Origin: a virus
Lineage: Duplodnaviria; Heunggongvirae; Uroviricota; Caudoviricetes
IMG/VR virus record: IMGVR_UViG_3300035498_000944
Length of the DNA stretch: 59,558 nt
Reading direction: 5' to 3' (one strand)
Shown here: piece after piece, positions 7,837 to 54,720 of the stretch
Numbering within the stretch: position 1 is the stretch's first letter
Layout of the letters: the number at the start of each line of letters is the position of its first letter
Notes under the pieces: generated by a model
Seen by the model: the letters and a program-made list of their open reading frames with translations, nothing else
Database searches by the model: none
What the model was told of the DNA's origin: nothing
Made by a program: the position numbers and the translations under genes

Positions 7837-7950
7837 TTATAATAAATTGTATTCCATTAAGTACATCAATGTGGATGTACTTAGAATGGAGAATATAGAA
7901 AGCGCTAAAATCCCAATATAAGCTATTGAAGAGAATATTGCTTTAATCAT
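7837..7950 (-). CDS. Small hydrophobic peptide (37 aa, MIKAIFSSIAYIGILALSIFSILSTSTLMYLMEYNLL) directly upstream of rpoB
   Basis: AAGGAGG RBS just upstream of ATG 7950, open frame to TAA 7837, one TM-like stretch; below the ORF-track length cutoff. Confidence 0.55.
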   Translation of the reverse strand: MIKAIFSSIAYIGILALSIFSILSTSTLMYLMEYNLL

Positions 7951-7977: not shown

Positions 7978-8001
7978 AGGGGAACACTTAAGTATTCCCC
8001 T
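7978..8001 (-). terminator. GC-rich hairpin with TTAAGT at the apex (terminator-like, weak U-tract)
   Basis: Minus strand AGGGGAATAC-TTAA-GTGTTCCCCT then TTGTT, just after the stop of 8014..8391. Confidence 0.65.
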
Positions 8002-8013
8002 ATGTAGTAAATT

Positions 8014-8391
8014 TTAGTCATCTGCCAAGTAATTTTCAATAGAAAAGCTATTACCCACTGTAGCAAGTGCTGGAAATGTCAACTGATAGGCAGTATCTCT
8101 ATCCCCATTAATAGCCAATACAGTATTGTCGGAAAGCATGATAAAACCATAAAGTGAATCTGAGTACTCTGATGCAATAACTTTAGCAATAGCACCAAAG
8201 TAACTTTTACAAGATTCCCTAGACAGGGTAAGCTCCTCAAAGCTAGCACCTCTCAAGAACTCTGACATCATGACCCATTCTTCAACCTCACCAAGATCAT
8301 TCTCTGCTGTTACTGAAGTGTCAGTACACTGAAATATATCAGTAGCTGTACCACTCTCATCAATGCAAAAACCAACTATAAAATCATTCAT
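8014..8391 (-). CDS. Hypothetical acidic protein
   Basis: 125-aa ORF with AAGGAGG RBS, flanked by the promoter motif and a hairpin. Confidence 0.75.
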   Translation of the reverse strand: MNDFIVGFCIDESGTATDIFQCTDTSVTAENDLGEVEEWVMMSEFLRGASFEELTLSRESCKSYFGAIAKVIASEYSDSLYGFIMLSDNTVLAINGDRDTAYQLTFPALATVGNSFSIENYLADD

Positions 8392-8427: not shown

Positions 8428-8465
8428 TCATTATATATGGATATGGAACTTCTTATTTTTCTGAG
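8428..8465 (-). promoter_or_regulatory. Putative element-specific promoter, copy 1
   Basis: Minus strand CTCAG-AAAAATAAGAAGTTCCATA-TCCATATATAATGA; same geometry at 34091 and 54683. Confidence 0.75.
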
Positions 8466-8479
8466 ATTTAAAAACTTTT

Positions 8480-9841
8480 TTATTCTTCTGCTATGTTTCT
8501 AAATAATTTTATGTAAGGAACTGAAAAATAACTATCAGGTCGTTTATTCTTCAATTTTTTCTTTGTGTGTATCTCATTGATAGAAAAGTAATCATCTACA
8601 ACACAGGTAATAAATGTACTATTATAAATTGTTGAATCGTCAATAATACATTGAGTTAATTTAGAGTTACCAAATACTTTTGAATTACTGAGTAGAGTAG
8701 TTCTAACTAATTTAGCATCACCGAATACTTGACAACCTCTGCAAACTTTAGAATATACATCTACACGACAATCACCCTCTTGAGATAAGCATGAGTAGTC
8801 AAATATGTAACCACCTAGAGTTCCATCAATATATTTTATTCTATGTAATCTTTGACCATTGTAAACTAGAGTATCATTCCTACTCAACACATATTTGTTT
8901 CTAGGTTCTGATATAACAGACTGTCTACAATTTAAAATTACACCATCATAAATTTTATTAGTATATTCATTACCGTAAACATCAGCATTTAAAACCTTAT
9001 TAGTAAATCTATCCGATACACAGCATACTCTACTATCTTTAATACTAGCACACTCTATTCCAGGACAATCCTCAATTGTAGAATTAATTATTGTAGAACT
9101 ATCAATGGTAGAATTTCTTATAGTAGAATTTATAATAGTTGATACATAACTTATTTTAGCATTAGCATCTAGATGACTGTGTATGATGTAACCACCATTA
9201 ATAACACTAGGATTATGTCTATCCATACTGGAATCTTTAGTCATCACAGCACCTTTAAAGGGCTCTAGACTATCACTTATAGAAGCATACTTCTTATCTA
9301 ATAAAGTGTAGTGTATAGGATAGAGCACAGTGCCCATGTATGGAGTTCCTTCAAATAAATTGAGGAAGTATCCTTTAAAATTCTGATACGTGAAGTCAAG
9401 CATCTCAGCTGTAGGATCCTTTATATTTACTATATTATCTTTACTGCGCAATAAAGATAATTTACATAACTTCTCACTAGGATCATCTATCTCAGAAATT
9501 ATAAATGGGTGATTCACCAACAGTCTTTTTAACCTTACATCATCATCTGTTTTAAAATCTGATAAATCTACTTCAATATCTGCAGGATTTAAAGTGTTGT
9601 ATCTATTATAAATATCTATCAAATACTCTATACAATCATCATCTGACATATCTTCTTGAAAGTCGGTATTTAAATAATTGCACCACTGCTTAACCACTCT
9701 AGCATAATCGGGTTTTAAATTAACCATATTATGAGCTAACTTTCCGGCATACAGGTTTATGAAGGCCCTAGGGTATAGTGCTTCACAAACTACATATTGA
9801 CGTATTTCAGTTTTTAACATCTTCCCACTTTCCTTCTTCAT
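8480..9841 (-). CDS. Hypothetical protein with C-terminal phage-type beta-helix-like repeats (real start may be 9820)
   Basis: LHRIKY..GTLGGYI....LSQEGDCRV followed by VFGDAKL/VFGNSKL repeats resembles a common phage beta-helix module; STIINSTI repeats in the middle. Confidence 0.6.
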   Translation of the reverse strand: MKKESGKMLKTEIRQYVVCEALYPRAFINLYAGKLAHNMVNLKPDYARVVKQWCNYLNTDFQEDMSDDDCIEYLIDIYNRYNTLNPADIEVDLSDFKTDDDVRLKRLLVNHPFIISEIDDPSEKLCKLSLLRSKDNIVNIKDPTAEMLDFTYQNFKGYFLNLFEGTPYMGTVLYPIHYTLLDKKYASISDSLEPFKGAVMTKDSSMDRHNPSVINGGYIIHSHLDANAKISYVSTIINSTIRNSTIDSSTIINSTIEDCPGIECASIKDSRVCCVSDRFTNKVLNADVYGNEYTNKIYDGVILNCRQSVISEPRNKYVLSRNDTLVYNGQRLHRIKYIDGTLGGYIFDYSCLSQEGDCRVDVYSKVCRGCQVFGDAKLVRTTLLSNSKVFGNSKLTQCIIDDSTIYNSTFITCVVDDYFSINEIHTKKKLKNKRPDSYFSVPYIKLFRNIAEE

Positions 9842-13620: not shown

Positions 13621-13649
13621 TATTAAACCTCCTTAATGAAAATTAATTA

Positions 13650-13713
13650 CAATATATTACGTATGAATCCGAAGGTAATATACTGTAAGAGATGGGATAA
13701 ACTTATCCCATCT
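13650..13713 (-). terminator. Twin hairpins closing the pilin cluster
   Basis: Plus strand AGATGGGATAA-AC-TTATCCCATCT (13690-13713, overlaps the stop of 13703) and CAATATATTAC-N14-GTAATATACTG (13650-13685). Confidence 0.55.
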
Positions 13714-17625: not shown

Positions 17626-17649
17626 GGAGGGTTCACTTAAGAACCCTCC
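17626..17649 (-). terminator. Perfect 9-bp hairpin with TTAAGT loop after the probable major pilin
   Basis: Minus strand GGAGGGTTC-TTAAGT-GAACCCTCC then TATTTGT. Confidence 0.7.
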
Positions 17650-17693: not shown

Positions 17694-18209
17694 TCAGCTC
17701 TTACCTGAAGAAGCTACAAGTGTACCATCGTTGTTGTACTGAACAAAATCAATACCAACAACCTGCTCATTTGTATCACGGATAAGTGTAGCCTTGAATT
17801 GAGCATTAGGTCTTACATATGTTACCTTTGTCTTATCTGTAATGTCTGCCATTGTACCATCAGCAGATTTACCTGTAAGGTCATTCTTTGAATCTGTACC
17901 AGTTGTTGTAGTTGTAAGCTGTGCACAGTAGTTCTTGCCACCTGTGTCTCTAGCAGTAGCAATGATAACACCAGTTTCTGTACCCTGATACTGCTGTACA
18001 GCTGCGATTACCTTCTGACCTGAAACCTTTGTACCATCATATTCAGCATAGGACTTTTCGTCGAGTGAGGATACCTGAGCACTAAGCTTGTCCTGACCAT
18101 CCTGGTTAGCCTGCATAGCCATGTAGACGAAACCGAAAATAATACCTACGATAACAACAATAATAATAACTGTAATGGCGTTCTTGATACCATCTGACCA
18201 ATCTGTCAT
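17694..18209 (-). CDS. Probable major pilin of the Tad-like pilus
   Basis: First of the paralog run, with its own structured leader and 3-prime hairpin; N-terminal hydrophobic helix then small globular domain. Confidence 0.6.
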   Translation of the reverse strand: MTDWSDGIKNAITVIIIVVIVGIIFGFVYMAMQANQDGQDKLSAQVSSLDEKSYAEYDGTKVSGQKVIAAVQQYQGTETGVIIATARDTGGKNYCAQLTTTTTGTDSKNDLTGKSADGTMADITDKTKVTYVRPNAQFKATLIRDTNEQVVGIDFVQYNNDGTLVASSGKS

Positions 18210-33275: not shown

Positions 33276-33374
33276 TGAGCATACCTCCTTGTATTATTTT
33301 ATTATATAGGTTAGTCTGTAGATTTAGACCATAATTAGTGTTTCGTTGCAATATACGAAAAACGAAGTCACTAA

Positions 33375-33402
33375 GAGAAGATACAACTTAATGTATCTCC
33401 CC
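33375..33402 (-). terminator. 11-bp hairpin (with G-U pairs) with TTAAGT loop
   Basis: Minus strand GGGGAGATACA-TTAAGT-TGTATCTTCTC; the wobble pairs work only on the minus-strand RNA. Confidence 0.65.
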
Positions 33403-33821
33403 AAAAAGTTTTGATTGTGTGTTTCGATTACAAACAATTAAGTTGTAAAATAACACGAAAAATATATAAAATAAGAAATGATTAGATGTAGTAATATGTG
33501 ACATATAAATCTTAGCAATAAATATGCATCACCTTAGCATCTAATTTGAAATCTGGTTTTGCTAAACTTGTATACATATCTGGAAATAAAACCCCATATT
33601 TTATTAGTAATTCTCAGCAACGCCATAACAAATCCAATTGCATAGAAGCAATACTACAAAGCAAAATTGTTTCACGTAAAACTCTAATAAGTAATCTTAC
33701 ACTCTGTCTATAACGTTGTTTTTAAGATCAATAAAATAGCTTCACACAACTCGTCAGCACTACAGCTTATGTACACAACCGAACAAGCAAAACGAAGAAA
33801 AGACTTAACTTAGAAATATGG

Positions 33822-34094
33822 TTAGTTCTCATAATCCGATGGCTTACACAGAAATTTTATTATGACTAAAATAATTGTGGCAAGTAAAGCACCACGCCAG
33901 TCTAATAAGGATTGTACGCCAAGTAAATACATACACAATGAAGCACCTGTCAAAGCAACAGATAATACCAACATTTCGTTTAGATTATTCAAAGGAATTA
34001 AATACATATCTCTTACACTGATTTTTATTATGTAAAAGATAAACTTAATTATCTTTTGAGCGTCAACTTTCACTACCTCTTTCTCCTTTCTCAT
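33822..34094 (-). CDS. Small membrane protein (real start probably GTG at 34073)
   Basis: Two TM-like segments. The ATG at 34094 lies inside the promoter motif, while AAGGAG sits 9 nt before GTG 34073. Confidence 0.62.
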   Translation of the reverse strand: MRKEKEVVKVDAQKIIKFIFYIIKISVRDMYLIPLNNLNEMLVLSVALTGASLCMYLLGVQSLLDWRGALLATIILVIIKFLCKPSDYEN

Positions 34095-34128
34095 TATATA
34101 TGGACCGCTAGTTATTTATTTCTCTGAG
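34091..34128 (-). promoter_or_regulatory. Putative element-specific promoter, copy 2
   Basis: Minus strand CTCAG-AGAAATAAATAACTAGCGG-TCCATATATAATGA. Confidence 0.75.
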
Positions 34129-44031: not shown

Positions 44032-44531
44032 TTATAACCAACCATCCTCATCTGTATCCCAATCTGGAATGTCATAAGGATAATGTGGGTCATTTACATC
44101 AATTATTTTATCAGGTGTCCTAGACACATAATACTGATCATTACCACAAACTGCATGAGTCCTACACATTACTTCAAATAGATCGTTGTATTTTAAACCA
44201 ACTTCTTCGAGCAATGGATATAAGTCTGCACGTCCCTCTGGGATAGTTCTTTGTGTCACAAACATAGGAACATAATGTCTGATATATTCATCTTTATGTA
44301 GTGTTTCGTCTACACCAGCTATACTGATATAGTGTCCTTTGATTCAAGGTATTTACAATTGTCCCATATGAATCGTATGACCCAATCAGAATCACCAGAT
44401 AGACTACTATATTCCTCAGTTATTGTTGCAACAGGAATTGACTTGTACATAATATATGCAGTTCTAATTCTATCAATATGTTCAATGCGTCTATTTACAT
44501 CATAATCTCTAGGAAGTTTATATTTAGTCAT
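44032..44531 (-). pseudogene. HipA-partner (antitoxin-like) gene split by a 1-nt deletion
   Basis: ORFs 44319..44531 and 44032..44265 join into ...LESKGHYISIAG...MFVTQRTIPEGR if one A is added to the AAA at plus 44338-44340. RTIP..R...L...GL...DLFE..C.T...D.YY resembles partners of HipA-like kinases. Confidence 0.65.
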
Positions 44532-45436
44532 TAATTAACCTCCTAACTTCTTTATAAGAATCTTCTATTGATAATCTTTCAATAATATGAAGGTATCTCA
44601 TACAAACTATTTCAATATAAAATCGTTTATAAATTTCAGGTATAAAATCAGATATGTCATTTACAACAAGAACTATGTTTTTATATATAGTTTCTATACC
44701 TAAATTATTTCTAAAATAATCTAGTCTACTATTTAATAATGAACTTATATTTCTATCACCAATAATTTCATAATAGTTCGTTTTACGTGTACCTTTATTA
44801 ATATCGTCAACTCTAAACATAGAGGCTGGAAATCTTTCAGATCTATCAGATAAAAATTTAAATTCATCAACCTCAAATTGATTTATACTTCTGCATACAT
44901 CTGGAAATAATGAATATCTGTTATCATAAATAGGTGCTATAAGATATGTAGAACCGATCGTTAGGTATCCCCAGTTTCCATGATGACGGTCTCTATTTCC
45001 AAGTATAGCGTCACAGATATACATGTCCCAAAAAATGTTTTAGCATCTTAACTTTCATGTCTTTGGATAACTTAAGATGTTTATTAATTAGATATATAAC
45101 ATCATCGTATGTATATGTTTTATTAGAGATATCTGTATCTTCACTTGACTGCCTTGTATCCTTAAAAGATCTTAACGATATATTAGGAGATGTAAAGTCT
45201 CTCAATATAGTTACAAGTTCTTTCTTATAAAATCCAAGCCATGTTTCATGACATGGTATTTTTAAGGATCTTATAAATCTTGAAGCGATATGTTCACTGT
45301 ATAAAGCCGATATAGAAGATTCTTTGTGTTTTACAATATAGTTATACTTATCAACAGTTATACCAAATTTTAAAGAGTTGCCATCATATAATTTACGATT
45401 ACGCATTTCATCAGTTACGATAAATCCATTATTCAT
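44524..45436 (-). pseudogene. HipA/CtkA-like Ser/Thr kinase split by a 1-nt insertion
   Basis: YDGNSLK..YIVK..SEHIAS (N-lobe) and DAILGNRDRHHGNWG, APIYDN (C-lobe); removing one T from the T6 run (plus A6 at 45030-45035) gives KHFWDMYICD in one frame. Confidence 0.82.
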
Positions 45437-50260: not shown

Positions 50261-52744
50261 TTAAATTTTATTCTTTCTCTGTTGACGTTGATTTTGTTTA
50301 TCTATCCAGTTTCTTTGATAGGAACCAGCTAGTTGTTTACCATATTTAAACACACCTAAGAATTGCATATAAACTACTGTACCTATTATGAAGGTTAGTA
50401 AGTAAGGAATAAGCTGTAATAGTATAAGTGTGAGATAACCAACTGCAAAAGTTATAGCTGAAGTTATATATAGCTTTGGTTTAGGTATACCTGCAAGTTT
50501 AAAGAACTTCAAAGCTGGAGTTTGAGCAACAGCATCGTTAGAGATTTTATCGTCAAGCAAATCTGTAAACGGACCATTACTAAACACAATATTAAAGGTT
50601 GCTTTAACTAACACAGGGTATCCCCATAATGCAAGGACTAAGCCTACAAAGAAACCAAGACCTTGTTTAATAAATGTTATTATATAAGCACCCATTGTTG
50701 CTAAAAGGAAAGTTAAGAATAACCTTGGTAAAAACTTAAGCAGTATCTTTAGAGCATTATCAGCTTGAGTAGGATCAATGTATTTTTCCTGACTCTCTGT
50801 AGCTGGTTGTTTTTGTTGTACTGGCTGAGTTTGCTTAGGAGTACTTAACTGATTTGTCTGAGTTGACTGTTCTTTAGGTTTCTGAGCTGGTTGTGTAGTC
50901 TGAGGTTTTGTATTCTGTGAAGGCGTATTTGTAGATGTTGGATTTTTATCAGCACCTTTAACCATGTTCACAGATTTATCACCATACTTGTCAATATGCT
51001 CCTGTGTAATAGTAGTACCACTAGGTACATGAGCTTGAGCAGCAGTGACTGCTGTTATACTTGATTTATATTGATCAATCATAGACTTCATCTCAGCATT
51101 TTGAATCTGAAGATCTTTAACAACTTTAGACATTTCCGTAAGTTGTTTTTTAAGTTCATCAACTTCATTCTTAGCGTAAGGGTTAGAGGAATCTATACAA
51201 GTCTTTGTAGTTGCAGTAGCTGTTCCTGTCTTAGAAGCATGGCTGCTGGTTGACTTGGAAGCTTCTTTAATACTTGTATAATAATCACGTATTTTACTAA
51301 GCATAGATGGGGTGTGAAAACCATACATCTGCGATATTAACAATATCGTAAAAGACCATCTTATAGCAGTTTCATCAAGTTTACAACCGTAATCTTGTAC
51401 AGCCTTCATATCAGATTCAGCACACCTTAGTAACTCTTTAGAGTCTTTGATGTTCTTATACTCGGCTGTTGCAGAAGCTACTTTGTAATAGTTTAGGAAT
51501 ATGTTGTCTACAGCATCAGATAACTGACCATCTTTATACTTTACAGATAAGGCTATTAGCTTCTTTACACACTCATCTGTATCTGAAGCATAATGTTCTC
51601 TTAGATATGTATGAACAGCTTTTACTTCTTCTTTGGCAGACATACCGGATGAAGATGTAGGAGGTGTAATTGTTGTAAATTGAGCTGATGGTTTAGATGT
51701 ATTTGTAGAAGATGCCTGAGTATTTGTAGAAGATGGTTTAGTATTTGCAGAAGATGACTTAGAGGTATTTGTAGAAGATACTTGTGTATTTGAACTCTTA
51801 CCTATATTGTCCTCTGTAGCTGTTTTAACAATACACTTCTTGACTATTTTAGCATCACCATGTATGTTGTAAATAGTTATAATACCAGGTTCTATATTTA
51901 CAACTTTATTCCCTTCACCTTCAAATACAGCGTAATTAAAATCCTTTCCACTTTTATAATAATTTTTAACGAATTTAAGATCTTTAGCATCATAAAGTGG
52001 AGCTATAAACTCTGCATCTTTTATTACGTTAGTATCAGTCTTTATCCATAAATGAACTGCACCATCAGAACCGGATGGGCTAACATTGATGTATGAAGAA
52101 GCAACGCAAGCTTCGTAAGCTTTCCATCCATTTGGAGGATTCTTCCTATCCTTAAACTTCATTTGGTCTAATCTTAAAGATGACTTAGAGGATGAAGATG
52201 TTTGAGATGATGAACCTTGTGGTTTAGTAGTTGATTGTGAACTTCTAGCTTGAGAAGCTGAAGTTTGAGGCTTAGTATCTTGAGGCTTGTGAACTGTAAG
52301 TTCTGTAGGTTTAGAACTTTGTGCATTTGAAGATGACTCGGTCTTATTGCTTGGACCATCTTCTACAGTTACAATACATTTACGTTCAACTTTTATATCG
52401 CCTAAAGCATTTGCCCACCCAATCTTACCAGGGGTTATAGAGGTTACTGTATTACCAGTACCCTTTATCTCAACTATTGCTGAAGGACCCCGACCTGCTA
52501 AGTATCCTTTAATGTCTTTTACTTTGCCATTATAAAGTGGAAATACATACTCAGAGTTTGATGGTGGAAAGCTTGTAGTATTTACCCAAATTGGTATAGT
52601 TAAACTATCAGGATCACTTCTCATATATACGCATGGTGAAGCAGCAGCTAATCCTATATCTAATGCCATATATCCTGGTGGTGGCGTTTTTCTTTGTTTC
52701 CATTGCATTTGTTCCAATGATAAAGCCATATATGATTCCCCCAT
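50261..52744 (-). CDS. Large membrane protein with a duplicated N-terminal domain, S/T/Q linkers, coiled coil and C-terminal TMs
   Basis: LSLEQMQWKQRKTPPPGY and LRLDQMKFKDRKNPPNGW begin two similar ~125-aa units. Confidence 0.75.
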   Translation of the reverse strand: MGESYMALSLEQMQWKQRKTPPPGYMALDIGLAAASPCVYMRSDPDSLTIPIWVNTTSFPPSNSEYVFPLYNGKVKDIKGYLAGRGPSAIVEIKGTGNTVTSITPGKIGWANALGDIKVERKCIVTVEDGPSNKTESSSNAQSSKPTELTVHKPQDTKPQTSASQARSSQSTTKPQGSSSQTSSSSKSSLRLDQMKFKDRKNPPNGWKAYEACVASSYINVSPSGSDGAVHLWIKTDTNVIKDAEFIAPLYDAKDLKFVKNYYKSGKDFNYAVFEGEGNKVVNIEPGIITIYNIHGDAKIVKKCIVKTATEDNIGKSSNTQVSSTNTSKSSSANTKPSSTNTQASSTNTSKPSAQFTTITPPTSSSGMSAKEEVKAVHTYLREHYASDTDECVKKLIALSVKYKDGQLSDAVDNIFLNYYKVASATAEYKNIKDSKELLRCAESDMKAVQDYGCKLDETAIRWSFTILLISQMYGFHTPSMLSKIRDYYTSIKEASKSTSSHASKTGTATATTKTCIDSSNPYAKNEVDELKKQLTEMSKVVKDLQIQNAEMKSMIDQYKSSITAVTAAQAHVPSGTTITQEHIDKYGDKSVNMVKGADKNPTSTNTPSQNTKPQTTQPAQKPKEQSTQTNQLSTPKQTQPVQQKQPATESQEKYIDPTQADNALKILLKFLPRLFLTFLLATMGAYIITFIKQGLGFFVGLVLALWGYPVLVKATFNIVFSNGPFTDLLDDKISNDAVAQTPALKFFKLAGIPKPKLYITSAITFAVGYLTLILLQLIPYLLTFIIGTVVYMQFLGVFKYGKQLAGSYQRNWIDKQNQRQQRKNKI
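51699..51792. repeat. Coding tandem repeat GTATTTG(T/C)AGAAGAT, period 21-24 nt
   Basis: Copies at 51699, 51720, 51741, 51765 and a partial one at 51786; encode SSTNT/SSANT repeats. Confidence 0.8.
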
Positions 52745-52756
52745 TTAAAATTTTAC

Positions 52757-53524
52757 TTATTGTGTAACTTCATATTGGCTGTAGGAAGAATCAATAGTAA
52801 ATCCTATATTCATTGCAAAACTCCATACAGTTTCCAATTCTGTATGATCTCCCACATAAATATAAATATAGCTAATACTCTTAGGAGAAGTATATTCAAA
52901 TAATATTGCACGAAGCAACCAATCTAAAGCTTCCTTGCTCGTGTAATCTATATTCTCAATTATGCAATTATTGTTTTCTGCTAGATTATATTCATTAGAA
53001 TGAAGTGACACTCCAGTTACAACTTCATCATGAATACTTAATGTATCTACGACTGCCTTAGCTAATATATGAAAATCCTTAGTAATTGATATGTTACACA
53101 GATTATCATTCTTCAACTTAGAGACCTCTATACCAGCAGGTGTATCATAATCAATAATCATTCTGTTAGTACTTTTAAATTTTATAGTATAACTTGTCGT
53201 TATGTATTTTAATGTTATAGGTTCTATAAGCATTACTATCTTTTCAAATAATGGTGCAATCTTTTCTGATATAATAATTTTATCTAATGCATTTAATGGA
53301 ATCTCTGATGTATACCCGGCTAATACAGACACCTGCTTGCTAGGAGCTACAGAGTCATTTGCAATAACCAGTAATGTTCTTTTTATTCTAACACATACAA
53401 TATCGTATTGTAAAAGAGTTAAAGAAATGTCTTTCAACTTATGCCCTGTTACAAATCTTGTAAAAGCTAAAAGATCTGATACAGATAATATAGATCGTAT
53501 GTGCTCTAAATCACATGATCTCAT
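52757..53524 (-). CDS. Hypothetical protein
   Basis: 255-aa ORF with AAGGAGG RBS. Confidence 0.7.
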   Translation of the reverse strand: MRSCDLEHIRSILSVSDLLAFTRFVTGHKLKDISLTLLQYDIVCVRIKRTLLVIANDSVAPSKQVSVLAGYTSEIPLNALDKIIISEKIAPLFEKIVMLIEPITLKYITTSYTIKFKSTNRMIIDYDTPAGIEVSKLKNDNLCNISITKDFHILAKAVVDTLSIHDEVVTGVSLHSNEYNLAENNNCIIENIDYTSKEALDWLLRAILFEYTSPKSISYIYIYVGDHTELETVWSFAMNIGFTIDSSYSQYEVTQ

Positions 53525-53581: not shown

Positions 53582-53603
53582 GAGAGGTGACTTAACACCT
53601 CTC
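53582..53603 (-). terminator. Perfect 8-bp hairpin with TTAAGT loop
   Basis: Minus strand GAGAGGTG-TTAAGT-CACCTCTC, just after the stop of 53612..54577. Confidence 0.7.
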
Positions 53604-53611
53604 ATTTTATC

Positions 53612-54577
53612 TTAAGAAATAGGCAATGTTAATCTTACATGGGTAGCACTAATCTTTTCAAATGTTACCTGACCATTATAATCTGATATTGCCATCCATC
53701 CATCAGTAGTATGAATGGTATTGTTGTTGAGAATCTTAATGTAATATTTATCATCTTCAAACTTTACTTTAATAGGTACTTTTATACCATCTGGTCTATA
53801 CCACGCACCAGACGTACACAAACCTTCTGAGTTAACTTCTTTAGGCTTTACAAATATTTCAAGATAAGCATGTGTGTCGTTAGATGGTTTCTGTCCCCAA
53901 GCTGTACTTAAAGTCCAAGGTGCTGTATCTGCAGTATATGAGAGTAAACCTCTATACATATATGTTGCTGGGACTTTGAATGCATCTAAACCAAGAACAG
54001 CTTCTTCAAAACTATCCAAGTCATTCTCGTCCTCATCGAGCTTTAGTTGAGATGTGTTTACTACACGCTTACCTGACATAGCAGTTACACTATAGCCAGA
54101 AGTATCTGTTTTATAAAAGCTTGCTGAGATATTAGCTGTAGATATATCATCACTAAGCAGATCACTATATTCAGACATATACATTAAAGGCTTACTCAGT
54201 GAAGATTGTATGTAGTCAAAGTAGTCATATTCATCTGAAGATGATCCATTGTTGAGTCTTACCATCTCAGTTGTTGGATAATATACATTCTTACCAGAAA
54301 TAAGAATATTATTGAAATATGATGAACGACCCTTAGCATCAGAATATCTTATGGAAGCAACCTGATAATTATTTGTGATGTTAGTGATTGTTATAGTAAC
54401 AGTTCTTGCTAATGAACTCGTTTCATTTATAGGAGTATTCTCCTTATAAGTGAGAGTACATGTGTTATAATCCGCAGTACCTGCTAACATTTTATGGAAC
54501 TTGTTTGTATCAGATACACTACATCCAGTACAAAGAAGTGTGACTAAAAATGTTAGCATTAAAAATATCTTTCTCAT
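53612..54577 (-). CDS. Lipoprotein
   Basis: CTG-C lipobox; 321 aa. Confidence 0.75.
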   Translation of the reverse strand: MRKIFLMLTFLVTLLCTGCSVSDTNKFHKMLAGTADYNTCTLTYKENTPINETSSLARTVTITITNITNNYQVASIRYSDAKGRSSYFNNILISGKNVYYPTTEMVRLNNGSSSDEYDYFDYIQSSLSKPLMYMSEYSDLLSDDISTANISASFYKTDTSGYSVTAMSGKRVVNTSQLKLDEDENDLDSFEEAVLGLDAFKVPATYMYRGLLSYTADTAPWTLSTAWGQKPSNDTHAYLEIFVKPKEVNSEGLCTSGAWYRPDGIKVPIKVKFEDDKYYIKILNNNTIHTTDGWMAISDYNGQVTFEKISATHVRLTLPIS

Positions 54578-54682: not shown

Positions 54683-54720
54683 TCATTATATATGGATCAC
54701 CAGATAAAAATTTTCCTCAG
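54683..54720 (-). promoter_or_regulatory. Putative element-specific promoter, copy 3
   Basis: Minus strand CTGAG-GAAAATTTTTATCTGGTGA-TCCATATATAATGA. Confidence 0.75.

Follow-up and report, generated by a model that had tools for sequence, protein, structure and literature searches.

A shared promoter-like motif, a single gene and a hairpin at three operon boundaries of a mobile element with its own RNA polymerase

How does a genetic element that encodes its own RNA polymerase (RNAP), and whose genes all point in the same direction, divide these genes into transcription units? The question arises from the window that we analysed, which is the whole of a 59,558-nucleotide stretch of DNA that encodes an RNAP and probably comes from a giant mobile element that has not been cultivated. 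The window contains about 70 genes, all of which are on the minus strand and are tightly packed with few gaps, and its G+C content is 34%. An earlier note on this DNA had described a recurrent module: each copy of a promoter motif is followed by exactly one gene and then by a hairpin with a UUAAGU loop, and an operon of key genes (for RNAP, for replication and pili, or for wall hydrolases) lies downstream. The note suggested that these modules are either insulated single-gene cassettes or attenuation checkpoints, at which read-through would switch on a whole programme of genes. Here we consider which parts of this description hold and which reading accounts for them best.

The RNAP beta subunit is encoded in the window by an unsplit gene (it has the Pfam Rpb2 domains), and in the relative described below, the beta gene is followed by an alpha-sized gene and the gene for beta-prime. 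Other recognisable genes of the window or the relative encode a TraG-like P-loop ATPase, TerD, DnaB, a primase zinc ribbon, and several wall hydrolases. In two places the gene structure differs between the two elements: a HipA_C-like gene (44524-45436; 305 aa in the relative) and the next gene (44032-44531; 167 aa) are each represented by two ORFs in the window. These splits are frameshifts, pseudogenes, or assembly errors.

We found one close relative of the window, a 202-kb Logan contig. We examined 82 kb of it, and all of our statements about conservation rest on these two genomes. Gene order is kept between the window and the relative, and the proteins are 55-90% identical. Among IMG/VR and JGI metagenome contigs there was no close relative, as the matches were to rpoB genes only (about 28% identity). 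A phage collection gave no DNA match, and its protein-level matches to RNAP beta were only 23-33% identical. Via the TraG-like ATPase, we reached some more distant elements (61%, 45%, and 40% identity for this protein); neither the motif nor the promoter-gene-hairpin unit is present in them.

The putative promoter is built around an exact 14-mer, TCCATATATAATGA, which has TATAAT inside it and occurs three times in the window, always in intergenic DNA and on the minus (coding) strand (Table 1). On the coding strand, no other sequence of the window comes within two mismatches of the 14-mer. Each copy is preceded by a CTSAG/A-rich box, the start of which lies exactly 24 nt away, and the distance from the motif to the ribosome-binding site and start codon is about 15, 40, or 110 nt. 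Of the features expected for recognition by sigma-70 or sigma-A, the -10 element is present: TATAAT is perfect in all three copies, and the relative has TATAAT or TATAGT (the latter in two copies). A -35 element near TTGACA, 16-18 nt upstream, is absent (17 nt upstream, the sequence reads AAATAA or AAATTT), and so is an extended -10, as no TG precedes the -10 in the three window copies. Instead, the conserved upstream box consists of an A-tract at a distance of 17-20 nt from the -10; in the relative, the spacing of the A-rich box is shifted by one or two bases. When we scanned 596 Gb of reference genomes (GTDB) for the bipartite pattern, we obtained only 11 matches, single ones at unrelated places. 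No protein of the window has a relative encoded at any of these 11 loci, and we consider them to be chance matches.

Table 1. Positions of the motif, the single genes, the hairpins, and nearby features in the window
Feature	Position	Strand	Description
14-mer copies	8441-8428, 34104-34091, 54696-54683	minus	Exact match
Promoter copy 1	8428..8465	minus	Conserved in relative (L018)
Promoter copy 2	34091..34128	minus	A-rich/CTCAG box and 14-mer; kept in relative (L017) with TATAAT changed to TATAGT
Promoter copy 3	54683..54720	minus	Conserved in relative (L019)
Unit 1 gene	8014..8391	minus	125 aa, no recognisable family; 61% identical to the relative's 124-aa gene
Unit 2 gene	33822..34073	minus	83-aa small membrane protein, GTG start; 77% identical to the relative's ORF
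Unit 3 gene	53612..54577	minus	321-aa predicted lipoprotein, lipobox seen; 59% identical to the relative's 323-aa gene
H1	7978..8001	minus	10 bp, -18 kcal/mol, apex CUUAAG; follows unit 1 gene
H2	33375..33402	minus	11 bp, -15.6 kcal/mol, hexaloop UUAAGU
H3	53582..53603	minus	8 bp, -14 kcal/mol, hexaloop UUAAGU; terminator-like score
H4	17626..17649	minus	9 bp, UUAAGU loop; follows a single 171-aa gene; terminator-like score
H5	13690..13713	minus	10 bp, apex UAAGUU, stop codon in loop; ends a six-gene operon
Hairpin in unit 2 gene	34034..34057	minus	9 bp, AT-rich, UUAAGU loop, at 5' end of gene
Mini-ORF before RNAP beta gene	7837..7950	minus	37 aa, hydrophobic, 76% identity in relative
Two stem-loops between H2 and next operon	33314..33372	minus	Stems identical in relative, one loop differs

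Each of the three motif copies is followed by one gene. For the unit 2 gene, the listed start codon (ATG at 34094) falls within the -10 box, and we took an in-frame GTG as the start instead. Searches of Pfam, PHROG, and the Atlas with the three proteins found no function. The G+C contents of these genes (0.38, 0.31, and 0.34) do not deviate from that of the window (0.336). The earlier note had proposed to check whether the single genes are swapped between related elements, and we saw no such swapping: each gene has its orthologue at the matching site of the relative. We also rejected the idea that the single genes are morons, given that they occupy the same sites in both elements (one relative was compared) and have ordinary G+C content. 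Separately, the 5' end of the unit 2 gene contains a hairpin of its own with a UUAAGU loop (34034..34057). The corresponding loop in the relative (L017) is UUAGGU, which amounts to a Lys-to-Arg codon change, and this hairpin may be a by-product of the coding sequence.

Past these genes lie three of the five hairpins that we refer to as H1-H5. No other intergenic hairpin of the window is as strong as these five, all of which have UAAG at the apex. For H1, H2, and H3, none of 200 shuffled sequences folded as well, and shuffles did not match H4 or H5 either. The loop is shared to an extent that is not expected by chance: TTAAGT closed by at least eight pairs was observed four times, as compared to 0.02 times in shuffles, and no other loop recurs in the set of 54 hairpins of the coding strand that have eight or more pairs when read in hexaloop register. 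The best fold of H1 is a UUAA tetraloop within CUUAAG, which is a different register from the other hairpins. To our knowledge, UUAAGU is not a known stable loop, and the ViennaRNA parameters give it no bonus.

Like intrinsic terminators, the hairpins are stable, G+C-containing stem-loops past the stop codon (-14 to -18 kcal/mol). In a simple U-tract test (5 T in 8), H3 and H4 pass and H1, H2, and H5 do not. The distance from the hairpin to the next start codon is 27 nt for H1, 57 nt for H3, 69 nt for H5, 99 nt for H2, and 115 nt for H4. In a k-mer census of all intergenic gaps, no shared motif emerged besides the ribosome-binding site and the promoter motif described above. Three nearby features should be mentioned. 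The mini-ORF that starts 27 nt past H1 (7837-7950) has its own strong ribosome-binding site. A second stem-loop of 11 bp, which is AT-rich, directly follows H5 (13640-13690); the relative has the identical stem with another loop. And the gene before H4 (17694-18209), which has gaps on both sides, is the richest in G+C (0.41) among the genes that we checked. Together with H4, it is a fourth case of one gene and then a hairpin, with a different, unrecognised upstream signal.

The central part of the earlier description, that each promoter copy is followed by one gene and then a hairpin, holds at all three places. Given that 5 of the 67 gene junctions have a hairpin, a hairpin would follow all three promoters at the next junction by chance with a probability of 2e-4. 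Furthermore, all three units are found at orthologous places in the relative, with the promoter core, an orthologous single gene, and a hairpin. Other parts of the description need to be changed. The hairpin lies immediately after the gene in units 1 and 3 only; in unit 2, about 420 nt of non-coding DNA comes in between. As to what lies beyond the hairpins, the RNAP genes (beta, alpha, and beta-prime) follow unit 1, the genes for DnaB and primase follow unit 2, and a set of hydrolases (lysozyme, amidase, NlpC/P60, and M23) follows unit 3, as had been proposed; no search result supports the "pilus" label that had been attached to the block after unit 2.

The relative is also informative about the hairpins themselves. 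All five are kept at orthologous positions, and the stems show compensatory double changes (three pairs in H5 and several in H1), which speaks for selection on an RNA stem. H2 of the relative has one internal mismatch (-13.8 kcal/mol) and is the only one of the five with an unchanged loop. The other four have the loops GUGA, CACAA, CCCCUAA, and ACU, so the loop is dispensable within the family. Thus, the hairpin is part of the unit and the UUAAGU loop is not, which is a narrower statement than the one in the earlier note. In the examined part of the relative (82 kb), no strong intergenic hairpin besides these five occurs among complete genes (one more strong-hairpin match is inside a gene that is cut by the end of the locus).

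The pairing of promoter and hairpin is not strict, which counts against the reading in the earlier note. H4 and H5 have no motif promoter ahead of them. The relative has two additional promoter cores (L020 10490-10525 and L036 12440-12475), which have the A-rich box without its CTSAG part. One precedes a gene for an actin-like (MreB/Hsp70-fold) ATPase and a second gene, and the other precedes a 123-aa gene and then a 290-aa ORF, and no significant hairpin follows either promoter. Because two of the relative's five promoter copies lack a hairpin, the unit cannot be ascribed to the promoter as such. As judged from the two sequences, the arrangement is conserved at three particular loci in a two-member lineage, and it does not accompany the promoter everywhere.

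Some variable DNA coincides with the borders of the units. The 453-aa gene directly upstream of promoter 1 (8480-9841) has no counterpart in the relative. Of the two genes right after H3 (50261-53524), one encodes a 255-aa protein that is 23% identical to its counterpart, and the other encodes an 827-aa protein without a counterpart (a 439-aa gene is called there instead). The flanks of these two regions are 59-86% identical.

The non-coding spacer of unit 2 (33403..33821, minus strand), between the 83-aa gene and H2, is as well conserved in the relative (L017) as the neighbouring coding DNA, with 82% column identity when the entire intergenic region is counted, but its conservation is patchy. 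When we considered it as coding DNA, there was no ORF common to both elements. Folded alone, the spacer adopts a similar predicted topology in both elements, with a long-range helix of conserved blocks and a central hairpin; the complementary blocks near 33815 and 33600 close this fold in each. The folding energy is no better than that of shuffled sequences (for the two sequences, the z-scores were not significant), and two sequences are too few to establish covariation. No Rfam family matched at its gathering threshold, and weaker matches in the spacer were noise. It is possible that the spacer is a structured 3' UTR or a leader RNA. We rejected a replication origin, as the spacer has no DnaA boxes and no iterons.

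The spacer also contains 11 nt that could pair perfectly with H2, along its loop and 3' arm (33437-33447, minus strand), 45 nt upstream of H2. They form the loop region of another hairpin, which is weak and AT-rich and bears CUUAAU. This 11-nt stretch could compete with the folding of H2. It lies within a 37-nt insertion that the relative (L017) lacks. For H1, H3, H4, and H5, we found no complementary partner of at least 7 nt within 150 nt that could form an antiterminator. The conserved competing fold that is expected of a cis-acting attenuator or riboswitch is thus missing: the partner of H2 is absent from the relative, and there were no Rfam matches. This also counts against the suggestion that the hairpins are switch-like checkpoints.

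What, then, might the units do? From their layout we infer promoter activity, partial termination, and read-through. In our preferred reading, which we hold tentatively and to which we give a little less than an even chance, the hairpins terminate transcription in part or stabilise 3' ends; the first gene is made in excess, and the downstream operon is reached by read-through. The three near-identical motifs would act as promoters, for the host's holoenzyme or the element's own, each driving its promoter-proximal gene, and the stem-loop past this gene would be a partial terminator, a structure that protects the 3' end, or both. Because the motif starts just 5-12 nt past the stop codon of the preceding gene in all three copies, there is no terminator between the upstream operon and each promoter, and so the hairpin would mark the end both of the long unit that arrives from upstream and of the short transcript that starts at the promoter. 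The single gene would be over-made, and some polymerases would continue into the RNAP, replication, and envelope/wall-hydrolase operons. These downstream operons have no recognisable promoter of their own. For the element's RNAP genes, promoter 1 would offer a possible route to their first transcription.

The distances between the hairpins and the next start codons, the lack of a shared motif, and the presence of a U-tract in H3 and H4 only favour leaky termination and/or 3'-end stabilisation. Between the two options of the earlier note, attenuation and insulation, read-through is the better fit, with gaps of just 27 and 57 nt after H1 and H3 and no shared promoter motif following any hairpin. 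Some observations count against our preferred reading. Hexamers that match sigma-70 promoters at 10 of 12 positions end at the bases of H1 and H3, and the downstream operons could start there. Also, two of the five promoter copies in the relative have no hairpin, and H4 and H5 have no motif. And simple termination leaves the recurrence of one loop sequence in the window's element unexplained.

These sigma-70-like sites are the starting point for the first alternative, which we consider unlikely: that the units are insulated single-gene cassettes, with efficient terminators and with a separate promoter for each downstream operon, either of an unrecognised type or a sigma-A-like one that overlaps the end of the single gene. 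As a corollary, the hairpin would double as the 5'-terminal stem-loop of the next mRNA. The candidate sites are TTGAAA-17-TAAAAT, which ends 10 nt before H1, and TTAACA-17-TAAAAT, which ends at the base of H3 (each 10/12). However, 10/12 sites are to be expected roughly every 2 kb on each strand, and their number does not exceed that in shuffles; those at H1 and H3 are only partly kept in the relative. The element's own RNAP may read promoters of an unrecognised type, which would help this explanation; against it, no common motif precedes or follows the hairpins. Similarly, H3 and H4 pass a terminator scan, as expected if termination is efficient, but the U-tract is missing from the other three.

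A somewhat less probable alternative is that the hairpins act in RNA processing or stability and have little effect on transcription. After cleavage of a polycistronic RNA, they would block 3'-to-5' (or 5'-to-3') decay, and neighbouring segments would thereby reach different steady-state levels. This would suit stems that are stable, conserved, covarying, and mostly without U-tracts, in a genome of co-directional genes with few gaps, and it would also suit the tandem hairpins at H2 and H5. Sequence alone cannot separate this alternative from partial termination, and the alternative leaves unexplained why three of the five hairpins lie exactly one gene after the motif.

We view it as improbable that the hairpins are regulated checkpoints at which a protein or RNA factor of the element reads the UUAAGU apex and controls read-through, in the manner of N and boxB. 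The attraction of this idea is that four unrelated stems have the same hexaloop, as against an expectation of 0.02, and a fifth has UAAGUU. The shared loop cannot have arisen simply by duplication of one hairpin, given that the stems are different. The 11-nt complement to H2 could also be part of such a mechanism. But the relative keeps the hairpins and has different loops in four of the five, the hairpins share no boxA-like flank, and H1, H3, H4, and H5 have no competing fold. Nor is there a candidate for the reader: the proteins that are specific to the window have no family matches in Pfam or PHROG, and a literature search found no known system with a UUAAGU loop. We are equally sceptical of the strongest version, in which a dedicated trans-acting reader of the UUAAGU apex gates the polymerase at five boundaries and switches the RNAP, replication, and envelope programmes together. 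If it were true, the UUAAGU reader would be a new antitermination or termination-factor system that is tied to an element-encoded multisubunit RNAP. Antitermination of the N/nut type in particular is not supported, as the loop is common within the window and is not kept in the relative, and there is no boxA-like flank.

It is very improbable that the motif serves chiefly as the operator of some global regulator and not as a promoter core, with the adjacent hairpins being incidental: the 14-mer is near-palindromic around the -10 box, its exact identity exceeds what a promoter normally needs, and CCATAT-type words recur in intergenic DNA, but the motif has a perfect TATAAT at a sensible distance from each start codon, is always co-oriented with the genes, and has an adjacency to hairpins that is both significant (p ~2e-4) and conserved.

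The three units are concrete candidates for the promoters and operon boundaries of giant elements that carry a bacterial-type RNAP, and they point to read-through from a shared type of promoter as the way in which the genes for the polymerase and for replication are expressed. The layout itself is a familiar way of setting expression ratios. The feature that our preferred reading does not account for is the recurrence of the UUAAGU apex on unrelated stems, in this element only.

Two known systems resemble the units in having a fixed loop. The intercistronic regions of phage T4 have recurrent CUUCGG hairpins, in which UUCG is an extra-stable tetraloop. As in T4, stems that are unrelated to each other bear one and the same loop sequence in the intergenic DNA of a single genome; unlike UUCG, UUAAGU is not a known stable loop, and our literature search gave no precedent for it. 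In the nut sites of lambda-type phages, the boxB hairpin comes after the first gene of the PR operon, so that a promoter, one gene, and a hairpin with a fixed loop precede a large operon, much as in the window, where the loop is shared and the stems vary. The differences are that the loop in the window is not kept in the relative, that there is no boxA-like element or N-like protein, and that the stems are longer than that of boxB.

The morons of temperate phages are likewise single genes that lie between their own promoter and a terminator-like hairpin, among co-directional blocks of genes (PMC3594210). They are defined by their variable presence among related genomes and by a base composition that is unlike that of their neighbours (PMC3594210). 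In contrast, the single genes of the window are at the same sites in both elements, their G+C content is not deviant, and the upstream operon is not insulated from them.

A precedent for our preferred reading is the attenuator between rplL and rpoB in the proteobacterial rplKAJL-rpoBC region, where a partial terminator right after rplL sets the level of rpoBC via read-through (PMC4324240). The order is the same: a strong promoter, a proximal gene, and a hairpin directly before RNAP or replication genes. In the window, the gaps of 27-115 nt past the hairpins have no motif in common, but sigma-70-like sites (10/12) abut H1 and H3. In contrast to the rplL-rpoB case, the first genes in the window belong to no recognisable family and are not ribosomal proteins, and the unit occurs three times, with one identical promoter, in a mobile element. 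Also, most of the hairpins in the window lack a U-tract, and partial termination is proposed here from the sequence. The rpsU-T1-dnaG-rpoD operon has a layout similar to that of the rplL-rpoB attenuator. Overall, the units look like an ordinary arrangement of a leader gene plus an attenuator, built from signals that we found only in this lineage. What is new here is a lineage-specific variant of a known regulatory layout, and its novelty is modest.
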